Of a DNA stretch of 12,726 nt, positions 1 to 12,726 are shown piece after piece. The notes beneath the pieces were generated by a model that saw only the letters and a program-made list of their open reading frames with translations, did not search any database and was not told the origin of the DNA. Source of the DNA: a virus (lineage: Duplodnaviria > Heunggongvirae > Uroviricota > Caudoviricetes); the IMG/VR virus record IMGVR_UViG_2651869782_000036, positions 1 to 12,726 of that record; one strand, 5' to 3'. Each line of letters begins with the position of its first letter. Within the stretch, counting starts at the first letter, position 1. The translations under genes and the position numbers were made by a program.

Positions 1-468
1 CCGTGGCCTTCCGCCACTCCGCCAACAGGCTGGCTGAAATGCAACGGTGCAGCATTTTCTGCTGAAGAATACCCGGAACTGGCAAAGGCTTATCCGACAA
101 ATAAATTGCCTGATTTACGTGGTGAGTTTATTCGTGGCTGGGATGACGGACGTGGTATGGATACGGGGAGGGCAATATTATCAGCTCAGGGCGATGCCAT
201 ACGTAATATCTATGGTGAGTTCAAGACTGTAAACACCGAAAATTATTCAATATGGGAAGTAGCAAGCTCGTTTAAGGGAGCAGTGGTGCCTTTGAGTCCC
301 TCTACAAACAATAGTTATTTCTCCTTAACCAGAAGTATGGTGACAGAAAGAGCAGACGGCGCTGTTTACCCAAAAGTGATAGGCCTTGATGCTTCAAGAA
401 TTGTTCCAACTGCAAACGAAAACCGTCCTCGTAACATTGCGTTTAATTACATCGTAAGGGCAGTATGA
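1..468 (+). CDS. Tail fibre C-terminal variable cassette 1 (5'-truncated by the window edge; presumably fused to the constant fibre N-terminus upstream, i.e. the expressed tip)
   Basis: Frame open from nt 1 (PWPSATPPTGWLKCNGAAF...LPDLRGEFIRGWDDGRG...) to TGA at 466-468. Tail-collar-like motif PDLRGxFxRGWDxGRG and conserved C-terminal RPRNIAFNYIVRAV. Confidence 0.8.
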   Translation, partial: PWPSATPPTGWLKCNGAAFSAEEYPELAKAYPTNKLPDLRGEFIRGWDDGRGMDTGRAILSAQGDAIRNIYGEFKTVNTENYSIWEVASSFKGAVVPLSPSTNNSYFSLTRSMVTERADGAVYPKVIGLDASRIVPTANENRPRNIAFNYIVRAV

Positions 469-487
469 AAACGTTGGTTTGGGGGAA
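462..487. other. Candidate Gin-family crossover site (gix/hix-like 26 bp: AGTATGAAAACG TT GGTTTGGGGGAA), + orientation
   Basis: Marks the exact left edge of the sequence shared by all cassette heads. Right half-site read as TTCCCCCAAACC matches the gix half-site TTCCTGTAAACC as I recall it in 9 of 12 positions; AAAAC/GTTTT dyad around a non-palindromic TT core. Overlaps the stop codon of cassette 1. Confidence 0.6.
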
Positions 488-937
488 GGCTCTGCGTTGC
501 CCGTTGGTGTACCTGTTCCGTGGCCCTCAGCCACACCGCCAGCAGGGTGGCTGAAATGTAACGGTGCAGCATTTTCTTCTAAAATGTACCCAAAACTGGC
601 AAAGGCCTACCCCACCAATAAATTACCAGACTTACGCGGTGAATTTATCCGTGGCTGGGATGATGGGCGCGGGGTGGATGCCGGAAGGGGCATCTTAAGC
701 ATGCAGGGGTGGTTAACAGGAAGTCATTATCATAATATTCGGTCATGGGATGCGTGGGATAACACGGTGTTGGTGCCAAATGACAAAGGAGGGGATAGTC
801 TGTTGTCGACAGATAACGCCGTCCGGCAAGGTGCAATTAACGGTAGATTTACCAGTCAATACAGAACGGAATCCTCAGAGGGGAATGAAACCCGCCCACG
901 CAATATTGCCTTCAATTATATTGTGAGAACCGCATAA
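479..937 (+). CDS. Tail fibre C-terminal variable cassette 2 (silent, promoter-less cassette; the TTG start in the ORF track is probably not used, the frame is open from 458 through the crossover site)
   Basis: 152-aa ORF with the same conserved head (GEGSALPVGVPVPWPSATPPAGWLKCNGAAF...PDLRGEFIRGWDDGRG) and tail (RPRNIAFNYIVRTA) but a different central region; stop TAA at 935-937 overlaps the tfa start. Confidence 0.8.
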   Translation: MGEGSALPVGVPVPWPSATPPAGWLKCNGAAFSSKMYPKLAKAYPTNKLPDLRGEFIRGWDDGRGVDAGRGILSMQGWLTGSHYHNIRSWDAWDNTVLVPNDKGGDSLLSTDNAVRQGAINGRFTSQYRTESSEGNETRPRNIAFNYIVRTA

Positions 938-1548
938 TGAATAACGCGATATTAAATGATGACCTTATTGCCGTACAGGCAGGAAACATCGTCGTTTATA
1001 ACTATGATGGTGAGACACGGGAATATATTTCCGAATCAACTGAATATCTTGCTGTGGGTGTCGGTATTCCGGCAAATTCCTGTTTAGATGCCCCGGGCGC
1101 ACATAAAGCGGGCTATGCTATCCGCCGTTCGGAGAATTTAAGCTCATGGGAGTATGCGCCAGACCATCGTGGTGAAACCGTCTATAGCACTGACACGGGA
1201 AACACCGAAGAAATCACGGCGCTGGGTGACTACCCGAAAAATACAACCACTATCGCCCCGTTAACACCATACGATAAATGGGATGGTGAAAAATGGGTGA
1301 CAGATACTGAGGCACAACATCGTGCCGCAGTAGAAGCGGCAGAAACCAAGCGCCAGTCACTGGCTGATGCGGCAATGGCTTCCATAAGTCTGATTCAGTT
1401 GAAGTTGCAGGCCGGGCGGAAGTTGACGCAGGCAGAAACCACCCGGCTTAATGCCGTGCTGGATTATATAGACGCGCTGAACGCAATGGATATAAACATG
1501 GCACCAGATATCAACTTGCCGGAAATACCACTGGCAGCAGCCAGTTGA
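937..1548 (+). CDS. Tail fibre assembly protein (Tfa; P2 G / Mu U family)
   Basis: 203 aa; the C-terminal region (EAAETKRQSLADAAMASISLIQ...LDYIDALNAMDINMAPDINLPEIP) has the character of the caudoviral tail-fibre-assembly domain; start ATG overlaps the cassette 2 stop (TAATG). Confidence 0.85.
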   Translation: MNNAILNDDLIAVQAGNIVVYNYDGETREYISESTEYLAVGVGIPANSCLDAPGAHKAGYAIRRSENLSSWEYAPDHRGETVYSTDTGNTEEITALGDYPKNTTTIAPLTPYDKWDGEKWVTDTEAQHRAAVEAAETKRQSLADAAMASISLIQLKLQAGRKLTQAETTRLNAVLDYIDALNAMDINMAPDINLPEIPLAAAS

Positions 1549-1554
1549 ATATAA

Positions 1555-2031
1555 CTAAGCCGCCCTCACGATATAGTTAAATGCAATATTGCGGGGGCGG
1601 GTTTCACTACCACCTGTGTTACCAATACTTCCTCGTGAATGAAGCGTTGGTGATGGAATCAAACTCCCTCCTGTATTTGTGGCATCAAGCCCCCTGCCTT
1701 GCGTATATGTTTTTTTGAAAATCGTGGCCAACTCCCATTCATCCTTTGTGTCATATCCATCGTTAGCTACAACAATATGGCGGTGTTTTTCCAACATCCC
1801 GTTTTGAATGCTCAATAAAGCGCGTGCCGCATCAATTCCTCGCCCATCATCCCAGCCACGGATAAATTCACCGCGTAAGTCTGGTAATTTATTGGTGGGG
1901 TAGGCCTTTGCCAGTTTTGGGTACTTTTCAGAAGAAAATGCTGCGCCGTTACATTTCAGCCATCCCGTTGGCGGCGTGGCTGAGGGCCATGGAACGGGCA
2001 CACCAACGGGCAGTGCAGAGCCTTCCCCCAA
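1555..2031 (-). CDS. Tail fibre C-terminal variable cassette 3 (inverted, silent)
   Basis: 158-aa minus-strand ORF with the conserved head and tail (…SETRPRNIAFNYIVRAA) and a unique centre; convergent with tfa. Confidence 0.8.
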   Translation of the reverse strand: MGEGSALPVGVPVPWPSATPPTGWLKCNGAAFSSEKYPKLAKAYPTNKLPDLRGEFIRGWDDGRGIDAARALLSIQNGMLEKHRHIVVANDGYDTKDEWELATIFKKTYTQGRGLDATNTGGSLIPSPTLHSRGSIGNTGGSETRPRNIAFNYIVRAA

Positions 2032-2048
2032 ACCAACGTTTTCATGCT
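2023..2048. other. Candidate Gin-family crossover site (inverted orientation; TTCCCCCAAACC AA CGTTTTCATGCT)
   Basis: Reverse complement differs from the site at 462-487 by one base; overlaps the cassette 4 stop codon and the cassette 3 head. Confidence 0.6.
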
Positions 2049-2470
2049 GCCCTTACGATGTAATTAAACGCAATATTACGAGGACGAATGGTTACATAAT
2101 TAACCCCATCACCTCGTGAAGGCCCTGCAAATGAAAAACGGGAAAAGCCTGGTTGGTTAGAAACAATTTGGTCATAGTTATTGATTGAATGACCAGACCC
2201 AATGTCGAAATTACCTCCGTAATGAGAAAAACTTGTACCATCCTGCCCTGAAAGCAGGGTACGTCCCGCATCAATCCCGCGCCCATCATCCCAGCCACGG
2301 ATAAATTCACCGCGTAAATCCGGTAATTTATTGGTGGGATAAGCCCTTGCCAGTCTGGGATACATTTCAGAAGAAAATGCTGCACCGTTACATTTCAGCC
2401 AGCCCGTTGGTGGTGTTGCTGAGGACCACGGAACGGGCACACCAACGGGCAGTGCAGAGCCTTCCCCCAA
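2042..2470 (-). CDS. Tail fibre C-terminal variable cassette 4 (inverted, silent)
   Basis: 142-aa minus-strand ORF, conserved head and tail (…IRPRNIAFNYIVRAA), Gly/Ser-rich unique centre. Confidence 0.8.
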   Translation of the reverse strand: MGEGSALPVGVPVPWSSATPPTGWLKCNGAAFSSEMYPRLARAYPTNKLPDLRGEFIRGWDDGRGIDAGRTLLSGQDGTSFSHYGGNFDIGSGHSINNYDQIVSNQPGFSRFSFAGPSRGDGVNYVTIRPRNIAFNYIVRAA

Positions 2471-2487
2471 ACCAACGTTTTCATGCT
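2462..2487. other. Candidate Gin-family crossover site (inverted orientation)
   Basis: Same 26-bp sequence as the site at 2023-2048 (TTCCCCCAAACCAACGTTTTCATGCT); overlaps the cassette 5 stop and the cassette 4 head. Confidence 0.6.
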
Positions 2488-2948
2488 GCCCTTACGATGT
2501 AATTAAACGCAATGTTATGGGGGCGTGTTTCAGATGCTGTGCGAACTGAGCGAGAGGCGTCGAATGTCCATACAGAAGCACCATATCCTTCAATGATCTC
2601 AGTTGGTTGTAAGCCTACTGATAATATAGAGTCAGTTTGACTAAATGGTCCTGAATTAAGCGCATCTTTAAAAAGCTGAGTACGCCCAAAAGTGCCAACT
2701 ATATTCTGAATAGCGTCAGACTGTGCAGACAGTAGGTTGCGCCCATTATCAACGCCCCGTCCGTCATCCCAGCCGCGAATAAATTCGCCCCGTAAATCCG
2801 GTAATTTATTGGTGGGGTAGGCCTTTGCCAGATTGGGGTACATTTCAGAAGAAAATGCTGCGCCGTTACATTTCAGCCACCCCGTTGGCAGCGTGGCTGA
2901 GGGCCATGGAACGGGCACGCCAACGGGCAACGCAGAGCCTTCCCCCAA
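2481..2948 (-). CDS. Tail fibre C-terminal variable cassette 5 (inverted, silent; the ORF-track extension to 3005 is probably fortuitous read-through into the invertase promoter region)
   Basis: Conserved head (GEGSALPVGVPVPWPSATLPTGWLKCNGAAF…) and tail (SETRPHNIAFNYIVRAA); the centre resembles cassette 1 (…SAQSDAIQNI…). Confidence 0.75.
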   Translation of the reverse strand: MGEGSALPVGVPVPWPSATLPTGWLKCNGAAFSSEMYPNLAKAYPTNKLPDLRGEFIRGWDDGRGVDNGRNLLSAQSDAIQNIVGTFGRTQLFKDALNSGPFSQTDSILSVGLQPTEIIEGYGASVWTFDASRSVRTASETRPHNIAFNYIVRAA

Positions 2949-2965
2949 ACCAACGTTTTCGTTTT
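2940..2965. other. Candidate Gin-family crossover site adjacent to the invertase gene (TTCCCCCAAACC AA CGTTTTCGTTTT)
   Basis: Same right half-site and core as the other three sites; the left arm differs because it is not preceded by a cassette 3' tail. Lies ~55 bp upstream of the invertase start, as for cix/gix next to cin/gin. Confidence 0.55.
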
Positions 2966-3019
2966 TATCCCTACCTATACCAACTCTGTATTTTTCACGA
3001 AACAAAGAGGATGTTTTTT

Positions 3020-3619
3020 ATGCAAATTGGCTATATTCGTGTGTCAACAAATGACCAGAACACGGATTTACAACGCAATGCACTGAACTGCGCAGGATGT
3101 GAACTGATTTTTGAAGATAAAATCAGCGGAACGAAATCAGCCAGACCGGGATTGAAAAAACTGCTCAGAACGCTATCAGAAGGAGATACGCTGGTTGTCT
3201 GGAAGCTGGACAGACTGGGCAGAAGTATGAAACACCTGATCACGCTTATTGAGGAATTGCGGGAAAAAGGTGTTAATTTCCGTAGTCTGACGGACAGCAT
3301 TGACACATCAACACCCATGGGGCGTTTCTTTTTTCACGTCATGGGGGCTTTAGCCGAAATGGAACGTGAATTAATTGTAGAGCGTACACTGGCCGGGCTG
3401 GCAGCAGCACGCGCACAAGGACGCATTGGCGGACGTCGCCCGAAGTTGACAAAAGAACAACACGAGCAAATAGCGAGGCTGATTAAAAACGGTCATGACA
3501 GGAAACAACTGGCGATCATTTACGACATCGGCATATCGACGATTTATCGTTATCACCCTGCAGGCGATATACAGGCTGAAGAAACAACCAGGCAGACTCA
3601 GGAAAATAAAAACCGCTAA
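3020..3619 (+). CDS. Site-specific DNA invertase, serine recombinase (Gin/Hin/Cin/Pin family)
   Basis: Start MQIGYIRVSTNDQNTDLQRNAL… is the hallmark invertase N-terminus with the catalytic Ser in GYIRVST; C-terminal HTH (GRRPKLTKEQHEQIARLIKNG…ISTIYRY). RBS AAAGAGG 9 nt upstream of ATG 3020. The ORF-track start at 2825 is rejected. Confidence 0.93.
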   Translation: MQIGYIRVSTNDQNTDLQRNALNCAGCELIFEDKISGTKSARPGLKKLLRTLSEGDTLVVWKLDRLGRSMKHLITLIEELREKGVNFRSLTDSIDTSTPMGRFFFHVMGALAEMERELIVERTLAGLAAARAQGRIGGRRPKLTKEQHEQIARLIKNGHDRKQLAIIYDIGISTIYRYHPAGDIQAEETTRQTQENKNR

Positions 3620-3641
3620 TCTGACCATTAGCGGTTTTGCG
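3608..3641. terminator. Bidirectional rho-independent terminator shared by the convergent invertase gene and tail operon
   Basis: Perfect 8-bp stem CCGCTAAT / ATTAGCGG (3613-3620, 3627-3634) with a 6-nt loop, flanked by an A-run on the left and TTTT on the right; the invertase stop codon lies inside the stem. Confidence 0.6.
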
Positions 3642-3645
3642 TTAA

Positions 3646-4134
3646 TCAAAACAGCCCTTTAACGGAGCTGGCCGCGCTGTTAAGGGATGATGTGACCTTA
3701 TCTTTGAAGCCGGACAGCATATCACTGAACGATGAGGATTGCAGGCGCTCCCGCAAATCCTCATCACAGCGTCCAAGAGTCAGTGAAAATTCTATCTTTT
3801 TCGCCTTACCGTAGCGATCAAACTCGGAACGGGTCGTATTCGTTTCAGTCAGTACATACATGCCGTAAATCTGCCCGACACCATCAATCAGAGGCCAGGG
3901 GCGTCCTGTATATGCCTGCGTGGTCAGCAACGAAAGCGACACTTCGCCACCTGTAATTTCAGGATAAAGCACGCCGGAAAGCACGATGCGATCATCACCT
4001 GCGCCGATATACTGCCAGCTTGCTGAACGATTAACGCGTTCATTTTTCACATGCCGCCAGCTTTTGTTTTGCTGTAACTGCTGATGCGGCAATGTGCGCA
4101 GCTCAAAAACAAACATGCCGTAGATCATCATCAT
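3646..4134 (-). CDS. U: Phage tail protein U (P2 gpU family)
   Basis: MMMIYGMFVFELRTLP…SASWQY…GGEVSLSLLTTQAYTGRPWPLIDG… resembles P2 gpU as I recall it; size and position after T fit. Start chosen at the second ATG (better SD spacing; the GAGGAG SD overlaps the T stop); ATG 4140 is the alternative. Confidence 0.85.
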   Translation of the reverse strand: MMMIYGMFVFELRTLPHQQLQQNKSWRHVKNERVNRSASWQYIGAGDDRIVLSGVLYPEITGGEVSLSLLTTQAYTGRPWPLIDGVGQIYGMYVLTETNTTRSEFDRYGKAKKIEFSLTLGRCDEDLRERLQSSSFSDMLSGFKDKVTSSLNSAASSVKGLF

Positions 4135-4146
4135 GGCCATGACTCC

Positions 4147-6963
4147 TCAATCTTTATCGTAAAAACTGCCACGTCCGGCACGGTCGCGTCGTTCCAATTC
4201 TGCCCTGACCATTTCACCGACCAGTTTCGCCAGTTCGCGGGGATTCTGCGTAACAACGTTATGCAGATGAACATGAATTTCACCGCCAAATCCGGAGACA
4301 ACAGGCTCCCGGTTACGGGAAGTTGCAGGAACTGATGCCACTGGCGATCGTATGGCCTCCGCCACCGGGCGGGAGCTGGCCGCAACAACAGGGACCAGCG
4401 CCGGAGGCAGAGGAGTCGGGACCACGGGTGTGATGTTGATTGCGGAAGCAGGCTTACTGACCTGCGCAATCTTCCGCTCCTGCCACTCCCCACGAACAGC
4501 AAGTGCGCGGGGCAGGTTCTTAAAGACAATATCGCCGGGGCCAATGCGTTTTTTCGTCTCATCAACCAGCTTACCTGTGTTATCAGCAATTTTGCTGAGT
4601 CTGCGTAGCGTACCGGTATTGCTGTCTGTGAGCGGTTTGTTGTCTTTGGGTTTATCACCTCCGGTGCCATTGCCATTTTCCACAGGCTTCGGCGGATTGA
4701 TTTTCGCCAGGTCCCCCTGAAGCAAGGCAACCTTGTCCTGAAGAATGGCCGCACGCTGTGCGTCTTCGATTTTCTTGCGCGCCCTTTCCGCTTCATCCGG
4801 AAGGACGCCAAGTTTTTCAAGTATCCACGCCAGCGTATCCAGTAGCATTTTTGCAGGCGTCAGAACAAGTTGTAACGCACCGCCAAGAACGTTACCGAAT
4901 ATCTCGCCAGCACTGGTACATTTTTCCAGCGTTTCCTTGCTGGACTCCATCGGTGACAGCAGCGATTTAAACCAGTTAAACACCTGGCTGATCCCGCTTC
5001 CGATTGCGTCAAAAACAGGACCAAACCGTTCAAAGGTTTCGCGCAACGGGGCCAGCCTTTCCATAATCCCGCTGAACACCCCGGCAAAAAATGCCCTGAT
5101 GGGATCCCAGTATTTCCAGATAAGAACGGCAGCTCCGGCAAGTGCAGCCACGATAAGACTAACCGGACTGAACAGCGCCCCGATAGCGCCTCCCAGTAAA
5201 GAAACGGAACCCGTCACCATTCCCCATAGTGCTGGCAGGACCCTGACAGCATTCATTGATCCGGTCAGGAGAGAAAAACCAAGACGCAGTTTTGCCAGCG
5301 GACCAGCAAGCATACCAATAGCCAGCGACAACGAGCCAACCGTTGCAGTCATTGCCAGCAACGCACCGCCTGCTATCAGTAGCTGGCGCGTCAGTGCCGG
5401 ATGGGCCTGCGCCAGCGCCGTCACCCTTGATACCACCCGCGTGAGCCACTGCGTGACAGAACGCAGCGGACCGTCAATCAGATCTGCAATGCGGATGCGC
5501 AACCCTTCCCATGCACTGCCGAGTGATTTCAGATCGCCGTCAAGGTTGTTGGCCATAACCTTTGCTGTGCGTTCAGCCTCACCGCGCGCGCCTTCAAGTT
5601 CTTTTCTCAGTTTGGGTAAGGAACCGTCACCCACTGCATCAACGAGCGCCATAAACGATGTGAAAGCCTCTTCTCCGGCAATGTCCTTAAAGAACGATAC
5701 CCGGTCAACTTCCCCGTATTTGCGGGTGGCTTTATAAAGGTCGGCCAGCACATCCTCCATCGGGCGCATTTTACCCCCGGCATCCGAGACGGACACGCCC
5801 AGCTCTTTCAGAGCTTCTGCCGCCGCCTTTGGCGGTGATGCCAGACGAGCCAGGCTGGCACGCATTGCCGTCCCGGCATCACTCCCTCTGATGCCCATAT
5901 TCGCCAGCACGCCAGCCATCGCTGCGGCCTGCTCCAGCGATATTCCCAGCTTACCCGCCACCGGACCTGCATATTTCATGGTTTCGCCCAGTGCGCGAAG
6001 GTCAGTGTTGGTACGGGTAAACGCTGCGGTGAGTGTGTCACCGACCCGGTCCATCTGGTCAGCAGAAAGGCCGAACTGCGTCAGGATATTTGAGCCAATA
6101 TCTGCCGTCTCGCCGAGATCCATACCGCCAGCCGTTGCCATGCTCAGCACTCCGGGAAGCGCAGCCTGAATGGCCTGCGGTGTGAAGCCTGCCATTGCAA
6201 GAAATGCCTGCCCACTGGCGGCATCGCCTGCAGTGAACTGCGTTTCAGAGCCAAGTTTTAACGCCTGTTCACGCAGCGCCTTAAACTGCGGGCTGTTCTG
6301 GTCGATTCGCGTCAGTGCCTGAACGCGGGACATCTCTTTCCCGAACCCGATCGCAGGCTGCAAAAAACGCCCGGCAGCATAGCTGCCAGCCGCTGCCGCA
6401 CCAATTGCCAGCGCACCACCTGTTTTCAGTTTTCCCGCGGTTTCCTGCGCGCGCGAATACCGCTCACGCGCACGTGTTACACGCGCAAGCGCCTGCCGTT
6501 CGCGTTCAAGCTGGTTGTTGTACTGTTCGGTGCGTCTGATGGCCTGCTGGATGGTGTTATCGCTGCCTGTCAGGGAAATGCCGTGGCGTTTCAGCTCTCC
6601 GCCAAGCTCCCGCATTTTCTGAATTTCCCGTGTGCGCGATTCATTCAGGCGTTCAAGCCGGGTGCTTAACTGCTGCATCAGCTTTTGTTGTTTTTCGCTG
6701 AGCACTGTACCCGTGCGTTGTAACTGATTAAGGGCGTTAAGCTGGCGTCGTGCTTTCAATATGCCAGCATCCGCTTTACCGACAGCGTCACGGGCGCGCT
6801 CAAATGAACGCGCCTGACGCTCGAGATTTTTGATCGCCCCCTGCGTTCGCTGGATGGAGTCACCAAACTGCCCCATCAGGCGGCGGGCGTTTTCGGCAGG
6901 CCGGGTCAGCCTGTCAACGGCGCTGAAAGCGACCCGGATGTCAAGAGTCTTCATTGTCTGCAT
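4147..6963 (-). CDS. T: Tail tape measure protein (P2 gpT family)
   Basis: ~940-aa Ala/Gly/Leu-rich ORF with a coiled-coil-like N-terminal half and hydrophobic Gly-rich segments, located between the E/E' chaperone and U. Start uncertain (ATG 6963 or 6954; the ORF track uses GTG 6990). Confidence 0.85.
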   Translation of the reverse strand: MQTMKTLDIRVAFSAVDRLTRPAENARRLMGQFGDSIQRTQGAIKNLERQARSFERARDAVGKADAGILKARRQLNALNQLQRTGTVLSEKQQKLMQQLSTRLERLNESRTREIQKMRELGGELKRHGISLTGSDNTIQQAIRRTEQYNNQLERERQALARVTRARERYSRAQETAGKLKTGGALAIGAAAAGSYAAGRFLQPAIGFGKEMSRVQALTRIDQNSPQFKALREQALKLGSETQFTAGDAASGQAFLAMAGFTPQAIQAALPGVLSMATAGGMDLGETADIGSNILTQFGLSADQMDRVGDTLTAAFTRTNTDLRALGETMKYAGPVAGKLGISLEQAAAMAGVLANMGIRGSDAGTAMRASLARLASPPKAAAEALKELGVSVSDAGGKMRPMEDVLADLYKATRKYGEVDRVSFFKDIAGEEAFTSFMALVDAVGDGSLPKLRKELEGARGEAERTAKVMANNLDGDLKSLGSAWEGLRIRIADLIDGPLRSVTQWLTRVVSRVTALAQAHPALTRQLLIAGGALLAMTATVGSLSLAIGMLAGPLAKLRLGFSLLTGSMNAVRVLPALWGMVTGSVSLLGGAIGALFSPVSLIVAALAGAAVLIWKYWDPIRAFFAGVFSGIMERLAPLRETFERFGPVFDAIGSGISQVFNWFKSLLSPMESSKETLEKCTSAGEIFGNVLGGALQLVLTPAKMLLDTLAWILEKLGVLPDEAERARKKIEDAQRAAILQDKVALLQGDLAKINPPKPVENGNGTGGDKPKDNKPLTDSNTGTLRRLSKIADNTGKLVDETKKRIGPGDIVFKNLPRALAVRGEWQERKIAQVSKPASAINITPVVPTPLPPALVPVVAASSRPVAEAIRSPVASVPATSRNREPVVSGFGGEIHVHLHNVVTQNPRELAKLVGEMVRAELERRDRAGRGSFYDKD

Positions 6964-7162
6964 TCCCGCTGCGAAGTGCCGCCCGCTCACGCCAGCTAAC
7001 CACTTCGCCGGGCGTCATCATGAAGATTTCGGCGGGCGACCAGTTAAAAATGGCGGCGATATCTGCCACCAGATCTTCGATGTGCTCAAAGCACACCAGG
7101 GTGATTACGCTGCCGTCTCCTGCACGCTCTTCGCGCCAGAGTCTGGCTCGCTCATAAAATTT
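6941..7162 (-). CDS. E' extension: -1 frame ORF giving the E+E' tail assembly chaperone by programmed frameshift
   Basis: An ORF in the -1 frame relative to E, with no independent SD, overlaps the 3' part of E and the start of T; a canonical slippery heptamer A AAT TTT sits in the E frame inside the overlap. Confidence 0.5.
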   Translation of the reverse strand, partial: KFYERARLWREERAGDGSVITLVCFEHIEDLVADIAAIFNWSPAEIFMMTPGEVVSWRERAALRSGNADNEDS

Positions 7163-7479
7163 ACAGCCACAGCGCACAACTGAATAAAATCGCGTGACGA
7201 CATTTTTTTAATCATCACTTCATCCAGTCGTGGCGAGGTCACGCGAGGCAACAGCGTGAACATGGTATCCGCTTTCAGATTCAGCACATCAGACAGCGAC
7301 AGACCACGCAGGGATCCAGCCTGTTCAATAGCCCCGGTGATCTCCACATACGTGATTTTTTCGCCACCACGCTCAATTGGTCGGGTCAGTTTTACGCCAC
7401 GTTCGACAGCCATATCCTCACCTGCCGTCACATCATCCGCCACGGTGTTATTCCGGGTTTCAGTATCGATGTCTTTCAT
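7105..7479 (-). CDS. E: Tail assembly chaperone E (P2 gpE family)
   Basis: 124-aa ORF between tube and tape measure genes with a strong SD (AAAGGAG, 7 nt spacing); the position and the overlapping -1 ORF match the conserved chaperone pair (lambda G/GT, P2 E/E+E'). Confidence 0.7.
   Translation of the reverse strand: MKDIDTETRNNTVADDVTAGEDMAVERGVKLTRPIERGGEKITYVEITGAIEQAGSLRGLSLSDVLNLKADTMFTLLPRVTSPRLDEVMIKKMSSRDFIQLCAVAVNFMSEPDSGAKSVQETAA
7156..7162 (-). other. Candidate -1 programmed frameshift slippery heptamer A AAT TTT (read on the minus strand)
   Basis: Zero-frame codons GTA AAT TTT ATG (…AVNFM…); a -1 re-pairing gives AAA TTT TAT GAG… = KFYE…, exactly the E' reading frame. Confidence 0.4.
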
Positions 7480-7534: not shown

Positions 7535-8047
7535 TCAGCCAAGCCCGAGCGCGGAACGGATGCGATCGGGCACAATGTCCTTGCCGTCCTTCCGGTAAAT
7601 GAAGTTCAGCAGGTCAATCTCCCACAACGGGCGATCGTTAACACTCAGCTTGTAGTAGGTGTTTTTAATGGCGTAAGTGTGTGATGTGGCTTCGCCCTGT
7701 TTGGCTTCCCCCATATCAATTTCCGTCACACGTCCGCGCATTTCGACTTCATACAGGTCGCTTTCTGCATCGGTGTAGTATTCACCCGCAAAACGCAGCA
7801 GCGTGCCGTCAATCGTGCCGCCATACTTAAGGAACAGCTCACGAACTGCGCCCCCCATGACAAAGCTCGCATCAAGCGCGGAGTCGTCCAGACCGAGATC
7901 AATACTTACCGCACCCATCATGCCACCACCCCGGTAGCTGTCGGTTTTGCGCGTCAGCTTAGGCAGAGTGACGGACGTCACCTTACCCACTTCGTTTTCA
8001 CCATCCACAAACAGCGTAAAAAAGCGAAGATGTTTTGGTACAGCCAT
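7535..8047 (-). CDS. FII: Tail tube protein (P2 gpFII family)
   Basis: 170 aa; MAVPKHLRFFTLFVDGENEVGKVTSVTLPKLTRKTDSYRGGGMMGAVSIDLGLDD… resembles P2 FII as I recall it (…VTLPKLTRK…YRGAGM…DLGLDD…). Start ATG overlaps the FI stop (TGATG); SD GGGAGG. Confidence 0.88.
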   Translation of the reverse strand: MAVPKHLRFFTLFVDGENEVGKVTSVTLPKLTRKTDSYRGGGMMGAVSIDLGLDDSALDASFVMGGAVRELFLKYGGTIDGTLLRFAGEYYTDAESDLYEVEMRGRVTEIDMGEAKQGEATSHTYAIKNTYYKLSVNDRPLWEIDLLNFIYRKDGKDIVPDRIRSALGLG

Positions 8048-9231: not shown

Positions 9232-9388
9232 AGCTTCAGCCCCTTGTATCCGTTAAATGATTCAGCAACAATCATCACCCACCACGCGCGTAATCTCACC
9301 CCTGCGCTATTCTCCCGCCACGGCGACAACAAAAAGCAGTAACCCACTCCGCACGCACATGCGACCATGCCGCACAGGGAGGGAACAG

Positions 9389-10498
9389 ATGACCGACACC
9401 ACCATGCAATTGCTCAGTCAGGGCACAGACCCCGTGAAAATGCCGGATTTTGATATTCTCGCGGAGGGTAAAACGCTGTCCGGCGTGGCAGAGCGCCTGA
9501 TGAGCCTGTCGCTGACCGACAACCGGGGATTTGAGGCGGACCAGCTCACCATCACGCTGGATGATGCCGATGGCCAGTTGCAGCTACCGCCACGGGGCGC
9601 GCGTCTGACGGTTCTCATTGGCTGGAAAGGGGAACCGCTGACAGAAAAAGGCACTTACATTGTTGATGAAATCGCTCACGAAGGACCGCCGGACAGGCTG
9701 ACTGTTTCAGCCAGAAGCGCAGATTTTCGGGATGAATTTAACGTTAAACGTGAGGTGTCCTGGCATGATGTGACCGTTGAGCGTGTGGTATCCGCCATCG
9801 CTCATCGGTACGGTCTGAAACCGCAAATCAGCGAAATGCTGATGGATATCGAAATCGACCACGCCGACCAGACCGAAGAAAGCGACATGTCCTTTCTTAC
9901 GCGCATGGCGGAAATGCTGGGCGCAATCACCACGGTAAAAAGCGGCAATCTGTTATTCATCATGCCAGGTGGTGGCGTGAACGCACAGGGCCAGCCGTTG
10001 CCCTCGTTCGCCATTACACGCAGCAGCGGCGATCGCCATCAGTTCCGTATTGCTGACCGCGAGGCGTATACGGGGGTACGCGCCTACTGGCTTGATCTTA
10101 ATTACGGGAAAAAGAAAAAAGTCAGCGTGAAACGCCGTAAACCGCCAAAACCCAAAAAGGAGAAAAGCAGCAGCCGTGAAGGTGATTATATGGAAGGCGC
10201 GGAAGGCAATGTGTTTGTGTTACGCAAGACTTATCAGAACGAGCAGGCAGCAAGACGCGCAGCGGCGGCAAAGTGGCAGCAACTACAACGCGGAGCCGCA
10301 TCATTCTCCATCACACTGGCTCGTGGACGCGCAGAACTCTACCCCGAAATGCATGGCACGGTGACAGGCTTCAAAAGTGACATCGACAATCAGGACTGGA
10401 TTATTGCAAAAGCCGAGCACACCATTGATAACAGCGGCTTTACCACGCAGCTTGAGCTTGAAGCAAAAATCCCGGAATGGATAGCAGAAACAGAGTGA
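9389..10498 (+). CDS. D: Phage late control / tail protein D (P2 gpD family)
   Basis: ~369 aa from ATG 9389, preceded by SD GGGAGGGAA; contains LSLSLTDNRGFEADQLTITLDDADG, which matches the gpD family as I recall it. The ORF-track start at 9257 is rejected as having no SD. Adjacent to ogr as in P2. Confidence 0.75.
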   Translation: MTDTTMQLLSQGTDPVKMPDFDILAEGKTLSGVAERLMSLSLTDNRGFEADQLTITLDDADGQLQLPPRGARLTVLIGWKGEPLTEKGTYIVDEIAHEGPPDRLTVSARSADFRDEFNVKREVSWHDVTVERVVSAIAHRYGLKPQISEMLMDIEIDHADQTEESDMSFLTRMAEMLGAITTVKSGNLLFIMPGGGVNAQGQPLPSFAITRSSGDRHQFRIADREAYTGVRAYWLDLNYGKKKKVSVKRRKPPKPKKEKSSSREGDYMEGAEGNVFVLRKTYQNEQAARRAAAAKWQQLQRGAASFSITLARGRAELYPEMHGTVTGFKSDIDNQDWIIAKAEHTIDNSGFTTQLELEAKIPEWIAETE

Positions 10499-10540: not shown

Positions 10541-10801
10541 ATGTTCCGTTGTCCGCTTTGTGGCGCATCTGCCCGTATCCGCACCAGTCGTTCGGAAAAT
10601 GATTCAAACACCGTACGGAAAAAATATTACCAGTGTAACAACCTGGAATGCGGCATAAGTTTCTCAACACTGGAAGCTTTCCATAAATTCACATCGAAAC
10701 ACGCCCCCGGCGTTCACTCTTCAGAAGGTATCCCGTGGCATGAGTTGCCAGCTTCACACAGGGGAAACAATCAGATGAGTTTGCCTTTATCTCAGAATTA
10801 A
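10541..10801 (+). CDS. ogr: Ogr/Delta-family zinc-finger late transcription activator
   Basis: 86 aa; MFRCPLCG…(22 aa)…CNNLEC gives the C-X2-C-X22-C-X4-C spacing typical of Ogr; N-terminus resembles P2 Ogr (MFHCPLC…). SD TAAGGGAGG 5 nt upstream. Confidence 0.8.
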   Translation: MFRCPLCGASARIRTSRSENDSNTVRKKYYQCNNLECGISFSTLEAFHKFTSKHAPGVHSSEGIPWHELPASHRGNNQMSLPLSQN

Positions 10802-10810
10802 CAGGCAGAA

Positions 10811-10839
10811 TTGCCGGAGTAACAAAAAAGCGATAGATT
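10811..10839 (+). promoter_or_regulatory. Putative sigma70 promoter of the hok-like transcript (-35 TTGCCG, 17-bp spacer, -10 TAGATT)
   Basis: Hexamers are weak matches to consensus (4/6 each), with 17-bp spacing, placed so that a transcript would begin near 10846, at the 5' element that is complementary to the 3' end of the transcript. Sequence-only guess. Confidence 0.3.
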
Positions 10840-10992
10840 ACGCGCGGGTGCCTTTCGGCTGATGGTCGGAGGGAATACCCGAAGGCCGGATGTGGAAAGG
10901 CCCCGGAAAACATCTCTGTTTAACCGAGGCCCTAACATATCTACCTTAAGCAAGTGATAGGTTAGCGCCTCTCCAACAAAGGAGCAAGCGCT

Positions 10993-11133
10993 ATGTCGCA
11001 AAAATCGCTTACGGCCATCACGTTCTGCGTGACGGTAATCCTCATAATCTGGATGCTGCACGGTTCGCTGTGTGAAATACGGATGAGCTTCTGGGGAGCG
11101 GAGTTTGCGGCGTTCTTACAGTGTAAGCAGTAA
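10993..11133 (+). CDS. Hok/Gef-family type I toxin-like small membrane protein (46 aa)
   Basis: MSQKSLTAITFCVTVILIIWMLHGSLCEIRMSFWGAEFAAFLQCKQ: N-terminal hydrophobic helix followed by SLCEIR and E-x-AAF-x-x-C/Y, as in Hok (…[23 protein letters not shown]…). SD AAGGAG 8 nt upstream of the ATG. Below the 60-aa cutoff of the ORF track. Confidence 0.65.
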   Translation: MSQKSLTAITFCVTVILIIWMLHGSLCEIRMSFWGAEFAAFLQCKQ

Positions 11134-11220
11134 GGAAACCGCGACGGGGGAGCAATCCCCCGTCAATCGGTTGCCAGGGTAAGGTCGATAAGGCACCCTA
11201 TCTCACAGACATGAACAACA

Positions 11221-11253
11221 AACCCGCAGCGTAAAAACTGCGGGTTTTCTTTT
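11221..11253 (+). terminator. Rho-independent terminator (downstream of the hok-like gene)
   Basis: Stem CCCGCAG / CTGCGGG with an 8-nt loop, followed by TTTTCTTTTT. Confidence 0.65.
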
Positions 11254-11284
11254 TGGTTCCCTCACTCATGAGGACACCAAAAAC

Positions 11285-11317
11285 AAAGCCCATAGCATAG
11301 AATGCTGTGGGCTTTTT
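11285..11317. terminator. Hairpin with flanking T-runs on both strands (bidirectional terminator candidate)
   Basis: AAAGCCCATAGCA (loop tagaa) TGCTGTGGGCTTT then TTTTT on +; on the minus strand the same hairpin is followed by TTTGTTTTTGG. Confidence 0.5.
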
Positions 11318-11392
11318 GCATTCAAAGATGGACGTTATATGGACACTTAAAAATAAAATCCATTTATTTTCAAATAATTAAACTTCTACTTA

Positions 11393-11413
11393 AAGCGCCC
11401 GCAGGCGCTTTTT
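11393..11413. terminator. GC hairpin plus T-run immediately downstream of serS (terminator candidate, better formed for + strand transcription)
   Basis: AAGCGCC (loop CGCA) GGCGCTT followed by TTT on +; on the serS (minus) side the trailing run is only TTTAAG, so the assignment to serS is uncertain. Confidence 0.45.
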
Positions 11414-11433
11414 AGATTCAGAAAAATTGGGTA

Positions 11434-12726
<1,293 letters not shown>

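Follow-up and report, generated by a model that had tools for sequence, protein, structure and literature searches.

A programmed −1 frameshift in phage P2 yields the tail proteins E and E+E' (Christie et al. 2002, as cited in PMC3091744), and the annotation of the E gene in the P2 record NC_001895 places the shift at the end of the heptamer T TTT TTG. In phage lambda, ribosomes shift to the −1 frame at low frequency close to the end of G, the gene ahead of the tape measure gene, and this fixes the ratio of the short chaperone G to the extended chaperone GT (PMC5009743). Lambda is likened to the P2 system by this logic, with no sequence similarity expected, and differs in being a siphovirus rather than a myovirus and in its heptamer (G GGA AAG) and slipping tRNAs (Gly and Lys). 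A site nearly identical to the heptamer considered below is that of Rous sarcoma virus gag-pol, A AAU UUA, which likewise holds tRNA-Asn in the P site but belongs to a eukaryotic system with unrelated genes, depends on a downstream structure, and places Leu (UUA) in the A site.

The window (the whole stretch of DNA analyzed, 12,726 nucleotides) carries on its minus strand the tail operon of a P88/Xuanwuvirus-type P2-like prophage, in which open reading frames and Pfam matches give the order FII-E-(E')-T-U, preceded by FI (i.e., FI-FII-E-(E')-T-U). As in P2, E sits between the tail tube gene FII (8047-7535) and the tape measure gene T (6954-4147), the E and E' parts are homologous to their P2 counterparts, and a −1-frame open reading frame extends from the last part of E into the start of T. 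We assign a probability of about 0.75 to the sequence-based reading that E and E+E' form a tail assembly chaperone pair, the longer member being made by a −1 slip at A AAT TTT. The features concerned are as follows.

7535..8047, minus strand: gene FII, tail tube protein and upstream neighbor of E (PF04985, 7.5e-47)
7105..7479, minus strand: gene E, zero-frame product of the tail assembly chaperone gene, 124 amino acids (open reading frame, translation, phrog_103, homology to P2 E)
6941..7207, minus strand: the entire open −1-frame stretch, bounded on its 5' side by TAA 7210-7208
7203..7209, minus strand: A7 run, rejected as an alternative slip site (out of heptamer register)
7156..7162, minus strand: predicted −1 slip site A AAT TTT (sole canonical heptamer in the overlap; homology of the Phe codon)
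7153..7155, minus strand: ATG codon at the place where the family heptamer T TTT TTG has TTG (P88 and 12 other P2-like phages; IMG/VR allele counts)
6941..7156, minus strand: E' part of E+E', 71 codons in the −1 frame (translation, PF06528, phrog_1756)
4147..6954, minus strand: gene T, tape measure protein, likely start ATG 6954 (PF10145, 4e-58; annotated start of relatives)

Gene E begins at ATG 7479, with the Shine-Dalgarno (SD) sequence GGAG at 7490-7487, 7 nt upstream of the start, and ends at TAA 7107-7105, giving a product of 124 amino acids that matches phrog_103 ("tail protein") at 1e-36. A BLASTP comparison of the predicted fusion with P2 E+E' covers the E part at 1e-28; the E protein scores 20.6 bits against Pfam PF10109 (Phage_TAC_7), under the 25-bit gathering cut-off, and a search of NCBIfam returned no match. 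A preliminary description of the locus had noted a −1-frame open reading frame with its stop at 6941-6943 that lacks an SD of its own and overlaps the last ~100 nt of E and the first ~50 nt of T. This frame is indeed open from 7207 to TGA 6943-6941 and overlaps E by 103 nt, and no SD-like sequence precedes any of its start codons, including the GTGs at 7177 and 7096; a promoter search found no promoter-like site. The overlap with T reaches ~50 nt only if T starts at the GTG of the longest open reading frame (6990); with T starting at ATG 6954, as it does in annotated relatives, the overlap is 14 nt, the more probable value. The −1-frame extension carries the domain PF06528 (Phage_P2_GpE; E = 7e-12, 45 bits against a cut-off of 23 bits), spanning residues 138-173 of the predicted fusion, and matches phrog_1756 at 8e-38 over the whole 71-amino-acid stretch from the slip site; it is not a chance open reading frame.

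The codons at the predicted site are GTA AAT TTT ATG, and, as originally proposed, the overlap holds a single canonical X XXY YYZ heptamer in the E frame, A AAT TTT (7162-7156). Across the ~33 in-frame positions there, an estimated ~0.13 canonical heptamers are expected by chance, so a single heptamer is not significant by itself, and the predicted site takes its significance from homology and conservation. In the BLASTP alignment (AVAVNF against GKVVGF), Phe108 of the window falls opposite P2 Phe84, the Phe of the annotated P2 slip site; slippage in both phages would thus involve one homologous Phe codon, located where the chaperone domain ends. P2 slips on T TTT TTG to give ...GFL-VAE..., whereas the window, with TTT ATG, contains no T TTT TTG and offers only A AAT TTT, one codon upstream, which would give ...NF-YER.... 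The two systems also differ in the lengths of E (124 amino acids in the window, 91 in P2), of E+E' (179 against 142), and of the zero-frame tail past the heptamer (16 codons against 6). This tail had been regarded as unusual in length but is ordinary, running from 6 to 22 codons in 12 diverse P2-like phages and from 14 to 17 in most close relatives. The overlap contains a second U_UUU tetramer, GAT TTT ATT (7189-7186), which we rejected as a slip site: its P-site codon is unable to re-pair (C GAT), its P88 counterpart GAC TTT is not slippery, and slippage there would remove the conserved end of the E domain from the product.

In the mechanism that we propose, most ribosomes would finish E (7479-7105) at its stop and release the 124-amino-acid chaperone, while on A AAT TTT a small fraction would move back by one nucleotide, the P site holding Asn and the A site Phe, with tRNA-Phe re-pairing perfectly (UUU to UUU) and tRNA-Asn shifting from AAU to AAA. 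The slipped ribosomes would read TAT GAG CGA... in the −1 frame until TGA 6943-6941, and the resulting fusion of 179 amino acids, with E' running from TAT 7156-7154 to that TGA, would join a C-terminal GpE domain to an intact chaperone domain. Because both Asn and Phe are already incorporated when the −1 slip occurs and the next codon is TAT (7156-7154), the predicted junction reads ...CAVAVNF-YERARLW... and not AVN-KFYE, which had been misderived. The predicted tryptic junction peptide for a slip on A AAT TTT is DFIQLCAVAVNFYER, its zero-frame counterpart is DFIQLCAVAVNFMSEPDSGAK, and a noncanonical slip on T TTT ATG would give DFIQLCAVAVNFMER. The analogy with P2 E/E+E' and lambda G/GT suggests that T, the tape measure protein, is a binding partner of both E and E+E', that the role of the extension is to recruit the assembly of tube and sheath, and that the ratio of E to E+E' is set by how often the frameshift occurs. 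We infer the slip itself, its frequency, and the functions of these proteins from sequence.

Of 12 diverse P2-like phages, 11 have T TTT TTG at the homologous x-Phe-Leu codons and the twelfth has T TTT TTC; against these, P88 (GTA AAT TTT TTG), and the IMG/VR alleles, the ATG of the window is a derived T-to-A change at 7155. This loss of the family's usual heptamer in the window's lineage went unmentioned in the preliminary description. Among 51 distinct, scorable IMG/VR sequences, which were retrieved through the E' domain only and are thus unbiased for the slip site, every one has a canonical heptamer on the homologous Phe codon: 32 in the P2 register only, 7 in both registers, and 12 in the upstream register only, the last comprising 9 CCCT_TTC_TTG and 3 AAAT_TTT_ATG alleles. 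Thus 39 of these 51 relatives, like P2 and P88, carry T TTT TTG. Two of the 80 IMG/VR loci (L163 and L165) at first appeared to have no heptamer but carry T7 and T8 runs, and E and E' are fused or misframed in these T7 and T8 relatives. A separate scan of genome contigs with the E protein returned two loci only, both P88-type.

P88 and its relatives among E. coli and Salmonella prophages are 88% identical to the window in DNA and share its gene order and A AAT TTT; they differ in having A AAT TTT TTG, hence the heptamers of both registers, and a −1-frame stop between the A run and the heptamer. The A AAT TTT heptamer is thus common to P88-type and window-type alleles, and A AAT TTT ATG leaves the window lineage with the upstream register only; the same T-to-A change also occurs on a P88-type background (L062). 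At the ancestral T TTT TTG site of the family the P site holds Phe and the A site Leu; once TTG had become ATG, slippage would have been limited to the heptamer that overlaps it one codon upstream, where Phe occupies the A site. Klebsiella prophages of the Reipivirus type (e.g., Kp4845-1) show a parallel change to C CCT TTC TTG: the T6 run is interrupted (CCT TTC TTG), only the upstream-register C CCT TTC is present, and Phe would again lie in the A site. In these phages the P-site codon specifies Pro rather than Asn, the interruption falls at a different place (TTT to TTC, not TTG to ATG), and identity in the E' part of the fusion is ~57%. The natural allele series comprises A AAT TTT TTG, A AAT TTT ATG, T AAT TTT TTG, and C CCT TTC TTG, with AAATTTTTTG in P88, TAATTTTTTG in L162, and CCCTTTCTTG in Klebsiella. 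Whether two lineages (Xuanwuvirus prophages of the window type, from E. coli and Citrobacter, and the Reipivirus type of Klebsiella) have each moved the frameshift by one codon, from T TTT TTG to X XXT TTY, by interrupting the T6 run is in our estimate evenly balanced.

The ATG allele is viable and not a defect, as judged from its occurrence. Complete E. coli records carrying the exact 50-mer of the window allele, with E' intact, number 526, and of 5426 complete genomes 598 match it at ≥95%. The identical sequence occurs in Citrobacter phage PhiSM, described as a fully functional, plaque-forming temperate phage (PMC6456863).

Reporter measurements in E. coli bear on both registers (PMC4066793 and its supplement). 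AAAUUUU gave −1 frameshifting of 0.070, 0.355, and 11.4% with no stimulator, the IS911 stimulator, and the IS3 pseudoknot, respectively, and UUUUUUG gave 0.118, 0.247, and 0.765% under the same three conditions. When stimulators are present, A_AAU_UUU thus performs at or above the level of U_UUU_UUG, and heptamers of the new register are far more responsive to stimulators; with none, AAAUUUU is near background (0.07 against 0.055%). The same study counts H_HHU_UUY as one of the best E. coli motifs. In the window, single-sequence folds of the region downstream of the slip site were no better than shuffles (z-scores of −0.9 and −0.1), and RNAalifold on 12 relatives found no consensus structure or covariation (consensus energy, −0.3 kcal/mol). 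No SD-like stimulator (GGAG/AGGA) was seen upstream of the heptamer, and the locus thus showed neither a conserved hairpin or pseudoknot 4-10 nt downstream nor an SD-like element 6-17 nt upstream, the marks of stimulated signals of the IS911/dnaX type. A local hairpin, GCCAG-ACT-CTGGC (~7146-7134, located by eye), was considered as a compensating stimulator and rejected, as it is missing in P88 and in L062, which has the ATG allele on a P88 background. With no stimulator found, the efficiency of frameshifting may be low; P2 itself is likewise reported to lack a stimulatory structure (PMC3091744).

Several other readings of the locus were weighed. The one that survives best, though we think it unlikely, keeps the same site and alters only the mechanics, such that tRNA-Phe alone slips on U_UUU, either in the P site awaiting Met-tRNA or in the A site, and re-pairing of tRNA-Asn is irrelevant. 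The Phe codon is the one element common to all slip-site variants of the family, and U_UU.U is among six tetramers that frameshift in E. coli with a stimulator, although tetramers alone barely exceeded background (PMC4066793). Single-tRNA and tandem slippage yield an identical protein, so the sequence of the product does not discriminate between them; all 12 distinct sequences without the P2 register, however, keep the full X XXT TTY (AAA T or CCC T), which is unexpected if the P-site codon is irrelevant.

Very improbable, by comparison, is that E' is a separate small gene of 51 amino acids, translated without any frameshift from its own start at GTG 7096, even though this is how the annotations of phages 503458 and P88 and of E. 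coli genomes present it ("GpE family phage tail protein"). GTG 7096 has no SD within 5-13 nt and is not conserved, the Klebsiella clade having GTT, and the phrog_1756 match extends over all 71 amino acids from the slip site. Over the 15 codons past the Phe codon, amino acid identity is 0.51 in the −1 frame against 0.41 in the zero frame, with FxxxGxxxxERxGDG as the −1-frame consensus. Nucleotides vary most at third positions of the −1 frame, i.e., the substitution pattern in the overlap tracks that frame. The −1 frame is thus conserved for ~20 codons upstream of GTG 7096, inside E, and selection therefore acts on it ahead of any start codon that it might use by itself. The P2 counterpart, moreover, is annotated as a −1 frameshift fusion and is an essential tail protein (NC_001895; PMC3091744). 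Gene order, homology to P2, conservation of the site, and these frame-specific substitutions together support a programmed −1 frameshift at the heptamer first proposed.

The A7 run (7209-7203), where tRNA-Lys might slip on the ribosome or RNA polymerase might insert an extra A, had been ranked second to the heptamer as the site of the shift; that ranking was right, and we now reject the run as highly improbable. It lies just inside the open −1 stretch of the window, and tRNA-Lys is known to be shifty (PMC4066793), but the run reads AAA AAA A in frame and so provides no X XXY YYZ heptamer for a tandem slip, and a −1-frame TAA (7210-7208) lies just 5' to it. Of 90 clade members, 52 (4 of them with the ATG allele) have a −1-frame stop between run and heptamer, and other members of the family lack such a run. 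Slippage at the run would also replace 16 conserved residues of the chaperone domain (SRDFIQLCAVAVNF) and the conserved DFxxL end of the E domain. Seven A's are also short for efficient transcriptional slippage. Equally remote is the reading that TTG to ATG destroyed a functional slip site, leaving no E+E' and defective tails: it is true that the P2 heptamer T TTT TTG, the one studied by experiment, is missing, but a canonical, experimentally slippery heptamer remains (PMC4066793), a second clade has the same kind of change, and the allele occurs with E' intact in the E. coli records and in plaque-forming PhiSM.

The mechanism favored here, a −1 slip at A AAT TTT, is already known, and the finding does not reveal a new one; its novelty is a minor variant of the slip site, one codon upstream of that of P2. 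Its practical value lies mostly in annotation. None of the clade records examined (RefSeq phage 503458, GenBank P88 and PhiSM, and PGAP-annotated E. coli genomes) annotates the frameshift; E' is entered as a separate 51-amino-acid gene, or left out altogether in PhiSM, and the 179-amino-acid E+E' is therefore missing from them, in a prophage family present in about one-quarter of complete E. coli genomes. For the family itself, the one-codon move in register, if true, could retune the ratio of E to E+E', and interruption of the T6 run could remove an indel-prone homopolymer. The natural allele series offers a ready-made test of the contribution of each register in vivo and of the constraint on the chaperone ratio.

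The window is a P2-like prophage whose best DNA matches are Escherichia phages 503458 and 520873, Citrobacter phage Shae_phiSM, and Xuanwuvirus P884B11 (98.4 to 98.6%); the Xuanwuvirus-type phage P88 matches at 88%, and the region is 100% identical in one E. coli ETEC chromosome. Its gene order differs from that of P2, in which D and ogr come after U: here, two ORFs without any Pfam match take the spot of D. Because the host gene serS follows ogr, the att site and with it the end of the prophage are expected at about 10800-11430.

Features of the window (coordinates, strand, content)
9231-8047, minus, FI (sheath)
8047-7535, minus, FII (tube)
7479-7105, minus, E (124 aa)
6954/6990-4147, minus, T (tape measure)
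4140-3646, minus, U
3649-3371, minus, ORF downstream of U (92 aa; stretch 3031-3649)
3318-3031, minus, second ORF downstream of U (95 aa; same stretch)
9257-10498, plus, gene D, divergent from FI
10541-10801, plus, ogr, divergent from FI
11434-12726, minus, host serS, beyond ogr
937-1548, tail fibre assembly gene
1805-2086, 2262-2546, and 2740-3003, repeat, three copies in one orientation
1-209 and 403-705, repeat, two inverted copies
6987-7018, minus, protospacer in E'; PAM at 7019-7021, ATG directly before it

The five copies of the repeat (about 210 to 280 nt) lie within positions 1-3005. Each of the four copies scanned (all but 1-209) covers the beginning of an ORF with a tail-collar domain (PF07484). 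The stretch resembles an invertible tail-fibre (host-range) segment with multiple cassettes.

We put the probability that E (the tail assembly chaperone) and E+E' (its predicted 179-aa fusion to a −1-frame extension, E') form a real frameshift pair at about 0.9. As the preliminary description had proposed, a −1-frame ORF runs over the end of E: this frame has many stops up to TAA 7210-7208, beyond which it is open for 88 codons to TGA 6943-6941, overlapping E by 103 nt. Its distal part is a GpE domain (PF06528, E = 7e-12), and the 71 residues downstream of the candidate slip site match phrog_1756 over their entire length (8e-38), so the ORF is real and not due to chance. The overlap with T, previously put at about 50 nt, is most likely 14 nt, since relatives annotate T at the ATG matching 6954.

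Two side observations concern E' itself. A terminator-like hairpin (7042-7071, minus strand; 7 bp, 5 of them G-C, then TTTTT) coincides exactly with the codons of the most conserved motif, DLVADIAAIFNW, and is thus probably a by-product of coding. Separately, a type I-E CRISPR array adjoining cas1e-cas2e in E. coli GmM066 (NZ_CM183652.1) has a 32-nt spacer identical to the E' protospacer; ATG is a functional type I-E PAM.

Annotation pipelines instead start a separate 51-aa "GpE family" gene at GTG 7096, which has no Shine-Dalgarno sequence within range, in line with the earlier reading of E' as lacking its own, and which is not conserved. Across 45 distinct sequences, the 15 codons past the Phe codon show a mean pairwise amino acid identity of 0.51 for the −1 frame and 0.41 for the zero frame. 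At 70%, the consensus reads FxxxGxxxxERxGDG and LxxxxxxxxxxAxTx, respectively, and nucleotide variability peaks at position 3 of −1-frame codons (position 2 of zero-frame codons). The −1 reading is therefore under selection at positions well before the E stop, and also before GTG 7096. In P88, phage 503458, and PGAP-annotated E. coli genomes, E' appears as the separate gene from GTG (window 7096-6941), named "tail fiber protein," "tail protein," or "GpE family phage tail protein"; in the record for PhiSM, E' is missing and the sheath gene is mislabelled "late control gene D protein." A frameshift annotation is absent from all of these records, the ones examined for the clade.

The slip itself probably, if somewhat less surely than the pair, occurs on A AAT TTT (7162-7156), confirmed as the sole canonical X XXY YYZ heptamer in the E frame within the overlap. 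With an estimated 0.13 such heptamers expected by chance in about 33 in-frame positions, a single one is not significant by itself, and its weight rests on comparison. The A7 run (7209-7203), already considered the poorer candidate, is rejected: read in frame as AAA AAA A, it is no tandem-slip heptamer, a −1-frame stop separates it from E' in 52 of 90 clade members, and its use would replace the conserved chaperone end, SRDFIQLCAVAVNF.

In P2, the frameshift is annotated where T TTT TTG ends (PMC3091744). The E/E' junction was compared across a diverse set of 12 P2-like phages (of Escherichia, Salmonella, Yersinia, Burkholderia, and Ralstonia): T TTT TTG stands in 11 of them and T TTT TTC in the other, in every case at x-Phe-Leu/Phe where the chaperone domain ends. 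The predicted window fusion aligns its ...AVAVNF with ...GKVVGF of P2 E+E' (BLASTP, 1e-28), so the Phe codons of the two heptamers are homologous. P88 reads GTA AAT TTT TTG, containing both heptamers, whereas the window reads GTA AAT TTT ATG and lacks T TTT TTG; in the window lineage, a T-to-A change at 7155 has destroyed the usual heptamer of the family, leaving only the overlapping one, one codon further upstream than in P2. The predicted junction is ...AVNF-YER..., not AVN-KFYE as first given, which would re-read four bases. The 16-codon zero-frame tail, once called unusual, is not so: most relatives have 12 to 17 codons here, P2 has 6, and SEN4 and RSA1 have 22.

An IMG/VR search whose query alignment was restricted to E' domains, hence unbiased for the slip site, gave 51 distinct sequences once the junction had been located per locus, none without a heptamer on the homologous Phe codon. 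The P2 register (T TTT TTG/A/C; Phe in the P site) occurs alone in 32, both registers (C CCT TTT TTG or A AAT TTT TTG) in 7, and the upstream register (X XXT TTY; Phe in the A site) alone in 12, comprising 3 A AAT TTT ATG and 9 C CCT TTC TTG, the Klebsiella Reipivirus type found also in phage Kp4845-1. The T6 run has therefore been interrupted, with an X XXT TTY heptamer kept, at least twice. Two loci that seemed at first to lack the heptamer have longer T runs, either real homopolymer indels or sequencing errors: T7 fuses E and E' in one frame (L163, position 679), and T8 puts E' in the +1 frame (L165, position 678); their close relative L164 has T6.

Four observations say that the ATG allele is functional. 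An IMG/VR pattern scan constrained solely on the flanks recovered intact E homologues carrying ATG (42) or TTG (48), but no CTG or GTG; ATG is also found in L062, whose sequence is P88-type in other respects, and in the more divergent L098. A total of 526 E. coli records contain the 50-mer spanning the slip site without mismatch, and 598 of 5426 complete genomes match it at 95% or more. Citrobacter phage PhiSM, identical to the window in E and the overlap, is described as a temperate, plaque-forming, fully functional phage (PMC6456863). Finally, among all 64 heptamers measured in E. coli by Sharma et al., −1 frameshifting without stimulator, with IS911 stimulators, and with the IS3 pseudoknot was 0.070, 0.355, and 11.4% for AAAUUUU, 0.118, 0.247, and 0.765% for UUUUUUG, and 0.193, 1.39, and 23.2% for CCCUUUC, and H_HHU_UUY was counted among the best motifs (PMC4066793).

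A stimulatory element was not detected: the 83 nt that begin with the heptamer do not fold better than shuffled sequences (z = −0.9 in the window, −0.1 in P88), and RNAalifold detected no structure across 12 relatives. Likewise, none is reported for P2 and Burkholderia P2-like phages (PMC3091744). These results suggest that frameshifting is unstimulated and infrequent, as in lambda G/GT. The system is the known P2-type E/E+E' programmed −1 frameshift, ordinary in mechanism, and its variant slip site has minor value, in annotation and in the comparison of heptamer registers.
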